From assembly GCF_003334255.1 (NCBI RefSeq), contig NZ_QOWU01000114.1: DNA of 3,806 nucleotides; one strand, written 5' to 3'. Position numbers and translations under genes: made by a program. Origin of the DNA: Escherichia coli (GTDB lineage: Bacteria > Pseudomonadota > Gammaproteobacteria > Enterobacterales > Enterobacteriaceae). The notes beneath the pieces were generated by a model, which had not been told where the DNA came from, did not search any database, and was given only the letters and a program-made list of their open reading frames with translations. This document shows, one piece after another, positions 1,524 to 3,806 of this stretch (its first letter is position 1; each line of letters starts with the position of its first letter).

Positions 1524-3806
1524 TCTTGTTATTGACCTGTGTCTGGATGCGGTCCGTTTCGATGAGCAGATGAGCCGGGTAAGGCGTCATTTTTCAGGTC
1601 TGGATACTGACGCCAGAAAAACCGCAACTGTCGTTGAGCAGGGGCTGAGCCGCCAGGCGCTGGCTGCACAAAAAGCAGGGATTTCCGTCGGGCAGTATAA
1701 AGCGGCCATGCGAACCCTGCCCGCACAGTTTACGGATATCGCCACGCAGCTTGCCGGTGGTCAGAATCCCTGGCTGATCCTGCTGCAACAGGGCGGTCAG
1801 GTGAAGGACTCCTTCGGCGGGATGATCCCCATGTTCAGGGGGCTTGCCGGTGCGATCACCCTGCCGATGGTCGGGGTCACCTCGCTGGCGGTGGCGACAG
1901 GTGCGCTGGTGTACGCCTGGTACCAGGGAGATTCCACGCTTTCAGCGTTTAATAAAACCCTGGTTCTTTCCGGTAATCAGTCCGGACTGACTGCCGATCG
2001 CATGCTGACGCTCTCCAGAGCCGGACAGGCCGCAGGGCTGACGTTTAACCAGGCGAGTGAGTCACTGGCAGCCATGGTGAATGCCGGTGTGCGTGGTGGT
2101 GAACAGTTTGATGCCATCAACCAGAGTGTCGCGCGTTTTGCTTCTGCATCCGGTGTGGAGGTGGACAAGGTTGCAGAGGCTTTCGGAAAACTGACCACTG
2201 ACCCGACGTCGGGGCTGATTGCGATGGCGAAGCAGTTCCATAACGTGACGGCGGAGCAGATTGCGTATGTTGCTCAGTTGCAGCGTTCCGGCGATGAAAC
2301 CGGGGCATTGCAGGCGGCGAACGAGGCCGCAACGAAAGGGTTTGATGACCAGACCCGCCGCCTGAAAGAGAACATGGGCACGCTGGAGACCTGGGCAGAC
2401 AGGACAGCGCGGGCATTCAAATCCATGTGGGATGCGGTGCTGGATATTGGTCGTCCTGATACCGCGCAGGAGATGCTGATTAAGGCAGAGGCTGCGTTTA
2501 AGAAAGCAGACGACATCTGGAATCTGCGCAAGGATGATTATTTTGTTAACGATGAAGCGCGGGCGCGTTACTGGGATGATCGTGAAAAGGCCCGTCTTGC
2601 GCTTGAAGCCGCCCGAAAGAAGGCTGAGCAGCAGAGTCAACAGGACAAAAATGCGCAGCAGCAGAGCGATACCGAAGCGTCACGGCTGAAATATACCGAA
2701 GAGGCGCAGAAGGCTTACGAACGGCTGCAGACGCCGCTGGAGAAATATACCGCCCGTCAGGAAGAACTGAACAAGGCACTGAAAGACGGGAAAATCCTGC
2801 AGGCGGATTACAACACGCTGATGGCGGCGGCGAAAAAGGATTATGAAGCGACGCTGAAAAAGCCGAAACAGTCCGGCGTGAAGGTGTCTGCGGGCGATCG
2901 TCAGGAAGACAGTGCTCATGCTGCCCTGCTGACGCTTCAGGCAGAACTCCGGACGCTGGAGAAGCATGCCGGAGCGAATGAGAAAATCAGCCAGCAGCGC
3001 CGGGATTTGTGGAAGGCGGAGAGTCAGTTCGCGGTACTGGAGGAGGCGGCGCAACGTCGCCAGCTGTCTGCACAGGAGAAATCCCTGCTGGCGCATAAAG
3101 ATGAGACGCTGGAGTACAAACGCCAGCTGGCTGCACTTGGCGACAAGGTTACGTATCAGGAGCGCCTGAACGCGCTGGCGCAGCAGGCGGATAAATTCGC
3201 ACAGCAGCAACGGGCAAAACGGGCCGCCATTGATGCGAAAAGCCGGGGGCTGACTGACCGGCAGGCAGAACGGGAAGCCACGGAACAGCGCCTGAAGGAA
3301 CAGTATGGCGATAATCCGCTGGCGCTGAATAACGTCATGTCAGAGCAGAAAAAGACCTGGGCGGCTGAAGACCTGCTTCGCGGGAACTGGATGGCAGGCC
3401 TCAGGTCCGGCTGGAGTGAGTGGGAAGAGAGTGCCACGGACAGTATGTCGCAGGTAAAAAGTGCTGCCACGCAGACCTTTGATGGTATTGCACAGAATAT
3501 GGCGGCGATGCTGACCGGCAGTGAGCAGAACTGGCGCAGCTTCACCCGCTCCGTGCTGTCCATGATGACAGAAATTCTGCTTAAGCAGGCAATGGTGGGG
3601 ATTGTCGGGAGTATCGGCAGCGCTATTGGCGGGGCTGTTGGTGGTGGCGCATCCGCGTCAGGCGGTACAGCCATTCAGGCAGCTGCGGCGAAATTCCATT
3701 TTGCGACCGGAGGATTTACGGGAACCGGCGGCAAATATGAGCCAGCGGGGATTGTCCACCGCGGGGAGTTTGTCTTCACGAAGGAGGCAACCAGCCGGAT
3801 TGGTGT
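1504..3806 (+). CDS. H: Tail tape measure protein (lambda gpH-like), 3'-partial (about 767 codons in window)
   Basis: ATG at 1504 with a GGAGG ribosome-binding site. The frame is uninterrupted to the window edge; it is absent from the ORF track only because no stop falls in the window. Translation MSQPVGDLVIDLCLDAVRFDEQMSRVRRHFSGLDTDARKTATVVEQGLSRQALAAQKAGISVGQYKAAMRTLPAQFTDIATQLAGGQNPWLILLQQGGQVKDSFGGMIPMF... matches my recollection of lambda gpH. It has a long charged alpha-helical middle and a Gly-rich hydrophobic segment near the end of the window. Confidence 0.95.
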   Translation, partial: MSQPVGDLVIDLCLDAVRFDEQMSRVRRHFSGLDTDARKTATVVEQGLSRQALAAQKAGISVGQYKAAMRTLPAQFTDIATQLAGGQNPWLILLQQGGQVKDSFGGMIPMFRGLAGAITLPMVGVTSLAVATGALVYAWYQGDSTLSAFNKTLVLSGNQSGLTADRMLTLSRAGQAAGLTFNQASESLAAMVNAGVRGGEQFDAINQSVARFASASGVEVDKVAEAFGKLTTDPTSGLIAMAKQFHNVTAEQIAYVAQLQRSGDETGALQAANEAATKGFDDQTRRLKENMGTLETWADRTARAFKSMWDAVLDIGRPDTAQEMLIKAEAAFKKADDIWNLRKDDYFVNDEARARYWDDREKARLALEAARKKAEQQSQQDKNAQQQSDTEASRLKYTEEAQKAYERLQTPLEKYTARQEELNKALKDGKILQADYNTLMAAAKKDYEATLKKPKQSGVKVSAGDRQEDSAHAALLTLQAELRTLEKHAGANEKISQQRRDLWKAESQFAVLEEAAQRRQLSAQEKSLLAHKDETLEYKRQLAALGDKVTYQERLNALAQQADKFAQQQRAKRAAIDAKSRGLTDRQAEREATEQRLKEQYGDNPLALNNVMSEQKKTWAAEDLLRGNWMAGLRSGWSEWEESATDSMSQVKSAATQTFDGIAQNMAAMLTGSEQNWRSFTRSVLSMMTEILLKQAMVGIVGSIGSAIGGAVGGGASASGGTAIQAAAAKFHFATGGFTGTGGKYEPAGIVHRGEFVFTKEATSRIG
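3550..3690 (+). other. Gly/Ala-rich hydrophobic (transmembrane-like) segment within the tape measure protein
   Basis: Direct translation gives SVLSMMTEILLKQAMVGIVGSIGSAIGGAVGGGASASGGTAIQAAAA. This is a long apolar, small-residue stretch of the kind found in the C-terminal part of siphovirus tape measure proteins. Confidence 0.6.

Follow-up and report, generated by a model that had tools for sequence, protein, structure and literature searches.

The Charged, Predicted Helical Central Third of a Phage Lambda-Type Tape Measure Protein in an Escherichia coli Prophage

The Tape Measure Protein: Identity and Length

The window analyzed here, a 3806-nucleotide (nt) stretch of Escherichia coli contig NZ_QOWU01000114.1 (assembly GCF_003334255.1), contains a region at positions 2460–3300 that an initial annotation had described as the presumptive coiled-coil core of a phage tape measure protein. 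This region is very probably the central third (residues 319–599) of a tape measure protein orthologous to gpH of phage lambda and encoded by an E. coli prophage; it carries no insertion or deletion (indel) relative to lambda, and a tail of lambda length would be expected. The protein is already known, and the gene is an ordinary prophage copy, encoding what is the best-known protein ruler.

The frame starting at ATG 1504 on the plus strand (1504–3806) remains open through the 3′ edge of the window, and its 767 codons are the first 767 of 853. It was assigned as the ortholog of gene H, encoding the tail length tape measure protein, on the basis of this open frame and a gapless alignment of the product to lambda gpH (PDB 8iyk_H; residues 1–767, 1557 bits). 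TIGR01541 (cut-off 104.75 bits) matched residues 472–813 with a score of 424.8 bits, and the PHROG family phrog_24 (tail length tape measure protein) matched residues 1–852. The flagged region sits between two Pfam domains, TMP_2 on its N-terminal side (PF06791; residues 54–256, positions 1663–2271, plus strand, E = 3.9e-69) and Tape_meas_lam_C on its C-terminal side (PF09718; residues 627–701, positions 3382–3606, plus strand, E = 1.6e-21). When the PDB was searched by sequence and by profile, the tape measure proteins of lambda and T1 were the sole significant matches. With the gene placed 3′ of V, G and T and 5′ of M, L, K, I and J, in the order V-G-T-H-M-L-K-I-J, the alignment and domain evidence upheld the original designation as a tape measure gene.

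The window had 100% identity to stretches of three E. coli chromosomes, those of G1/2, G6/7 and G8. In the G1/2 locus (L002) the full gene occupies positions 16504–19065 and comprises 2562 nt encoding 853 amino acids (aa), the same size as lambda H (10542–13103, 2562 nt). The lambda annotation confirmed the gpH length of 853 aa that had been given in the initial annotation. Full-length alignment of the G1/2 and lambda proteins (853 versus 853 aa) was ungapped, with 784 of 853 residues identical and 69 substitutions.

The principle that tape measure length scales with tail length is documented for lambda: according to PMC1796659, which cites Katsura & Hendrix 1984 and Katsura 1987, deletions and duplications in H lead to correspondingly shorter and longer tails. 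It had been suggested accordingly that the region might differ in length from its lambda counterpart, giving prophage tails of altered length. We consider this extremely improbable. Close relatives do carry in-frame indels in the region (+21, +28, −18, +7 and +13 aa among the hits), and one complete genome encodes an 874-aa tape measure protein. However, the window allele has no indel relative to lambda over residues 1–767, and the full gene in a 100%-identical genome encodes a protein of exactly lambda length, 853 aa. Nucleotide identity to lambda across positions 2458–3300 is 99.5%, and 278 of the 281 residues are identical. Only four nucleotides differ within 2460–3300, at positions 2498 (Y332F), 2636 (T378S), 2875 (S458G) and 2976. 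As the gene has the size of lambda H, no change in tail length is predicted, and at this locus the speculation can be dropped.

At 1.5 Å per residue, 853 aa correspond to 128 nm and the 281 aa of the flagged region to 42 nm, or about 10 of the 32 gpV rings that surround gpH in the lambda tube (PMC10721106). By homology with lambda, the protein would be made beside the chaperones G and G-T, which would coat it and keep it soluble and extended; it would then act as the ruler of the tail, with the flagged segment accounting for about 42 nm of the tube. A C-terminal piece would be cleaved after assembly, and the resulting gpH* would be expelled on infection and contribute to a channel across the periplasm. 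In lambda, gpH is cleaved to gpH*, which is part of the trans-envelope channel (PMC12617516). A Gly-rich stretch at residues ~681–740 is present in the window protein, with a Gly+Pro fraction of 0.23–0.30.

Mosaic Relationship to Phage Lambda

Divergence from lambda is unevenly distributed along the gene. Over about 1.5 kb in its middle, from position ~2249 to ~3755, the sequence is ~99% identical to lambda, silent sites included. The N-terminal ~266 aa carry 37 substitutions and the C-terminal ~75 aa carry 27, and the two diverged end parts differ from lambda at about 11–29% of nucleotides. Counted per 100 nt, 15–40 positions differ in V, G and T as well as at the two ends of the tape measure gene (the 5′ 750 nt and the 3′ end). 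Judged from these sequence comparisons, the allele is a mosaic. Because the middle is nearly identical to lambda while the ends and the genes V, G and T diverge, the pattern suggests that recombination took place within the tape measure gene, with putative block boundaries at ~2249 and ~3755.

Lambda gpH (PDB 8IYK/8IYL/8K35, chain H) is the closest characterized counterpart, with the same 853 aa, the same neighboring genes and the same G-T frameshift site. The window allele differs from it in being diverged at both ends and in coming from an uncharacterized prophage of commensal and clinical E. coli.

Composition and Periodicity of the Flagged Region

Read in frame, the flagged region comprises residues 319–599 (2458–3300, plus strand), which composition, periodicity and an AlphaFold2 model characterize as charged, rich in Gln, Ala, Lys, Glu and Arg, and predicted all-alpha. 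The limits of 2460–3300 were well placed, if slightly narrow: by sliding 40-aa composition the full charged, Gly/Pro-poor stretch extends over residues ~261–620 (~2284–3363, plus strand), with predicted helices at residues 321–619. The three peptides quoted in the initial annotation all lie in the frame of ATG 1504, namely KAEAAFKK... at residues 327–345 (2482–2538), AEQQSQQ... at residues 374–409 (2623–2730) and LWKAESQF... at residues 502–548 (3007–3147).

The composition of residues 319–599 (2458–3300) differs clearly from that of the flanks and agrees with the original description. Gln, Ala, Lys, Glu and Arg make up 57.3% of the region, against 34.9% of residues 1–318 and 32.1% of residues 600–767. 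The corresponding values for the charged residues Asp, Glu, Lys and Arg are 37.0%, 18.6% and 16.1%, and those for Gly+Pro are 2.8%, 11.9% and 15.5%. Hydrophobic residues account for only 20% of the region.

The strongest period of Leu, Ile, Val, Met, Phe, Trp and Tyr in residues 319–599 was 3.50 residues, with a power of 1.11 versus 0.38 ± 0.19 in shuffled sequences, a value reached in 1 of 300 shuffles. The hydrophobicity profile of the family (40 members) gave a 3.5-residue power of 1.007 versus 0.215 ± 0.114, reached in none of 500 shuffles. The heptad-like character of the sequence is therefore significant both in the protein itself and in its family, though it is not unique to the region, since residues 1–260 share the periodicity and show it more strongly.

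At the nucleotide level, the claim of biased codons and low-complexity texture also stood. The commonest codons were CAG (9.6%), GCG (8.5%), CTG (8.2%) and AAA (5.7%), and codon entropy was 4.89 bits in the region versus 5.2–5.3 in the flanks. Thymine made up 14% and purines 62% of the nucleotides. The fraction of distinct 6-mers was 0.765, lower than the 0.861 ± 0.013 of shuffled sequences, and Tandem Repeats Finder detected no tandem repeat array in the region. Composition and codon bias, rather than repeats, account for the low-complexity texture.

Variable Charged Segment and Conserved Block

The flagged region consists of two parts, a variable charged segment followed by a conserved amphipathic block. 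The first part (residues ~320–460) has no family consensus. Within it, residues 350–408 (2551–2727, plus strand), which are variable in the family, are predicted to form a single 59-residue helix (H51–109 of the AlphaFold2 model), with 44% charged and 14% hydrophobic residues. Opposite-charge pairs at spacing i,i+3/4 numbered 18 in this helix versus 11.0 ± 2.8 in shuffled sequences, and like-charge pairs 3 versus 10.0 ± 2.6. On these counts, residues 350–408 look more like a charge-stabilized single alpha-helix (ER/K) than a coiled coil; known ER/K domains are likewise enriched in opposite-charge and depleted in like-charge pairs, with no homology to the window protein. A single-alpha-helix reading of the whole region was rejected, as the region contains 43 opposite-charge pairs versus 38.2 ± 5.2 expected from shuffling and the pattern appears only in residues 350–408. 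Residues 463–580 do not show it.

The second part is a conserved amphipathic helical block at residues ~464–590 (2893–3273, plus strand), recognized from the invariant columns of the family alignment (A1) and lying within the TIGR01541 match. Its consensus is AGDR..D.A.A.LL.LQ..L..L..H...ND.ISQQR..LW..E..F.VLEEAA..RQLS.QEKSLLA.K...QLA.LGD...Q.RLN. Among sequences down to ~25% identity, 16 of the 20 invariant or nearly invariant columns fall in this block, the other four being W10, G17, R18 and G165. A weak match to Pfam TMP_4 (PF24622) at residues ~468–535 was detected in a close relative, P0003.

These data bear on the view that the region serves as a generic charged spacer, either of low complexity or disordered, in which only length matters and the sequence has no specific function. 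The biased composition, the reduced k-mer complexity and the lack of consensus in the first half are in keeping with such a spacer, as are the weak, non-significant matches to tropomyosin profiles (E = 0.07–0.2). However, just 186 of 1.84 billion cluster representatives matched at E ≤ 0.001 in an exhaustive search, and the longer proteins among the matches listed were tape-measure-sized (666–1246 aa), none of them a generic coiled-coil protein. Matches so few and of such size indicate that the sequence is specific and does not reflect generic coiled-coil composition. Together with the concentration of invariant columns at residues ~464–590 and the high AlphaFold2 confidence for the segment, this makes a generic spacer improbable.

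The conserved block is also shared with a second structurally studied phage. The tape measure protein gp38 of phage T1 (957 aa; PDB 9L9P, chain B) is homologous to the window protein over the N-terminal domain and over residues 399–737, the conserved block included (E = 7.5e-69 in the sequence search and 1.1e-53 in the profile search). The T1 tail has a lambda-like tip, and only the C-terminus of gp38 (921–956) is resolved. T1 gp38 is 104 aa longer than the lambda-type protein, its tube has ~34 rings versus 32, and its variable charged part before the conserved block could not be aligned to the window protein.

Predicted Structure and the Coiled-Coil Question

An AlphaFold2 monomer model was built for residues 300–620 (2401–3363) on a 40-sequence alignment. 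It contains 11 helices, including helices of 59 and 58 residues, and no strand, with a mean predicted local distance difference test score (pLDDT) of 82.6 and a predicted template modeling score (pTM) of 0.44. A search for a globular fold matching this model found none. The proposal of a coiled-coil core was thus borne out in part: the prediction is all-helical, the period is heptad-like and no globular fold emerged, but residues 350–408 resemble a single helix more closely, and the coiled coil itself is unproven because experimental structures of gpH leave out its middle part. Classical coiled coils such as tropomyosin share the 3.5-residue hydrophobic periodicity and a weak profile resemblance; in contrast to them, the region is only 20% hydrophobic, and the tropomyosin profile matches were not significant and indicate no homology. 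"Coiled-coil core" is a reasonable label, not an established one.

Several points weigh against reading the region as part of an extended, lambda-like ruler. The AlphaFold2 monomer folds its helices back into antiparallel hairpins, at the low pTM given above. If 853 aa must span ~135 nm, the chain cannot adopt such hairpins within the tube, and the model therefore lacks the extended form. Cryo-electron microscopy of lambda resolved only gpH residues 818–842/849 (PMC10721106; PMC12617516). The copy number of gpH is disputed: residues 818–842 were modeled as a three-helix coiled coil, from which a trimer was inferred (PMC10721106), whereas six filament-like gpH* chains were described in the distal tube, corresponding to a hexamer (PMC12617516). 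Finally, the prophage is known from its sequence alone, and its inducibility is uncertain.

Another possibility is that the sequence of the segment has been selected mainly for a role after ejection, in which it would refold from an extended helix into antiparallel alpha-hairpins and form a hexameric tube spanning the periplasm, with ruler length as a by-product. This is possible, though we hold it only tentatively, and it is compatible with the lambda-like ruler explanation. AlphaFold3 hexamer tubes of gpH residues 1–319 and 320–691 have been fitted into the lambda trans-envelope channel, and the tube of six gpH* copies over residues 320–691 is reported to fit the channel density (PMC12617516). 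On the other side, the tube in that paper is a predicted model placed in density of low resolution, and the pTM of the AlphaFold2 model is only 0.44.

In local structure the AlphaFold2 monomer was most similar to periplasmic alpha-hairpins from tripartite efflux adaptors and from TolC (MacA/MexA, ZneB, AcrA), and these matches were statistically weak. Such hairpins also form hexameric tubes that span the periplasm, recalling the gpH* hexamer proposed for the channel (PMC12617516). However, no significant sequence or global fold similarity to AcrA, MexA, MacA, ZneB or TolC was found, and the resemblance concerns a generic antiparallel hairpin in a low-pTM model. It may serve as a lead, not as a sign of relationship.

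Indels in Relatives and Direct Repeats

Part of the length variation seen in relatives is associated with direct repeats present in the window. A pair of 16-nt direct repeats (CGCCAGCTG[T/G]CTGCAC; repeat family D2) lies at 3058–3073 and 3121–3136, 63 nt apart (3058–3136, plus strand), and brackets a unit of residues 520–540 that is tandemly duplicated in some relatives. The duplication was confirmed in a complete genome, that of the E. coli bloodstream isolate NZ_OZ547117.1, where a 63-nt in-frame tandem duplication (21 aa, three heptads) gives a protein of 874 aa (L003, 1014–3638). The same residues are duplicated in P0002 and P0003.

A second pair, of 11 nt (GAAATATACCG at 2688 and 2742; repeat family D4), is spaced 54 nt apart (2688–2752, plus strand) and brackets the 18 codons (residues 399–416) that are deleted in the partial protein P0010. 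Another partial protein, P0001, carries a 28-aa tandem duplication of residues 436–463 (window positions 2809–2892). When the 18-aa deletion and the 28-aa duplication were searched for in complete E. coli genomes, the top matches listed were all in two pieces and corresponded to the allele that lacks the deletion or the duplication. Both variants, known from short partial proteins, are unconfirmed and may be assembly artefacts.

Antisense Open Reading Frames

Three long open reading frames (ORFs) run antisense to the tape measure gene on the minus strand, at 2062–2640 (192 aa), 2680–3210 (176 aa) and 3156–3674 (172 aa). Apart from their lengths of 172–192 aa, which might suggest real overlapping genes, the evidence runs the other way. 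The two longest, known from the ORF list and frame analysis, occupy the codon-aligned antisense frame, which is stopped only opposite the rare sense codons TTA, CTA and TCA (6 of 767 codons). In phage 1720a-02, the stretch homologous to ORF 2680–3210 is interrupted by five internal stops. Between these two sequences there are 109 substitutions, distributed 23/19/67 over sense codon positions 1, 2 and 3, and this bias towards third positions shows that the sense frame is under purifying selection. Neither strand of the window yielded a promoter-like site. Genuine antisense genes can be given hardly any credence here; the ORFs are spurious, as the initial annotation had supposed, and should not be annotated as genes.

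Neighboring Genes and Prophage Context

The window carries four co-oriented tail-module genes in a lambda-like arrangement. Upstream of the tape measure frame, the ORF list and lambda matches place the tube protein V, represented by its C-terminal part (ORF 7–633), the chaperone G (652–1083) and the T frame (ORF 1110–1523), all on the plus strand. Compared with lambda and its relatives, the whole window has 86.6% identity, and the features annotated there are V, G, T and 'H (tail component;853)'. When compared with lambda, the neighboring genes carry small in-frame insertions (614–625, 993–998, 1049–1051 and 1328–1339): V is longer by 12 nt at its end, G by 9 nt and T by 12 nt. The tape measure gene has none.

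A slippery heptamer, G GGA AAG, for the programmed −1 frameshift that produces the G-T chaperone was read directly at 1059–1065 (plus strand). It lies in the G frame, 18 nt 5′ of the G stop codon, a −1 shift there enters the T frame, and the lambda site is conserved. RefSeq labels T as an ATG-initiated protein of its own, not as a G-T fusion. From its ATG at 1504, the tape measure gene shares the last 20 nt of the T frame (1504–1523), compared with an overlap of 8 nt in lambda (10542 versus 10549), and the ATG is preceded by a GGAGG Shine-Dalgarno-like motif. An Rfam scan of both strands of the whole window gave no match, and a promoter scan of both strands found zero promoter-like sites. Terminator-like sites in the window numbered four, at chance level (3.0 ± 2.0).

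In RefSeq annotation, the G1/2 locus is a prophage late region with terminase, portal, capsid, V, G, T, tape measure, M, L, K, I, J, Lom and tail fibre genes, adjoining potAB and pepT. In the lysis region upstream of the window (L002, 1–5400), several genes are flagged as incomplete (DUF1737, YdfR and one hypothetical gene); the prophage may therefore be partly decayed, with uncertain inducibility. Of 5426 complete E. coli genomes, 3743 contained matches to the window; the number of copies per genome had a median of two and reached nine. The tape measure family of the window is among the commonest prophage genes in E. coli.

Implications

The discovery value of the flagged stretch is small, since the protein is the best-known protein ruler and the allele is 99.5% identical to lambda there and of equal length. 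A more far-reaching proposal is that the conserved block is metastable and more than a passive ruler, changing from an extended helix inside the tube to antiparallel hairpins in an AcrA/MacA-like hexameric periplasmic tube, and that the repeat-flanked indels provide natural tail-length polymorphism. We regard this combination as unlikely. If it were true, repeat-flanked in-frame indels such as the 21-aa, three-heptad duplication would amount to tail-length polymorphism among E. coli prophages. The natural variants of 853 and 874 aa offer ready-made material for testing both the ruler rule and the proposed gpH* channel model.

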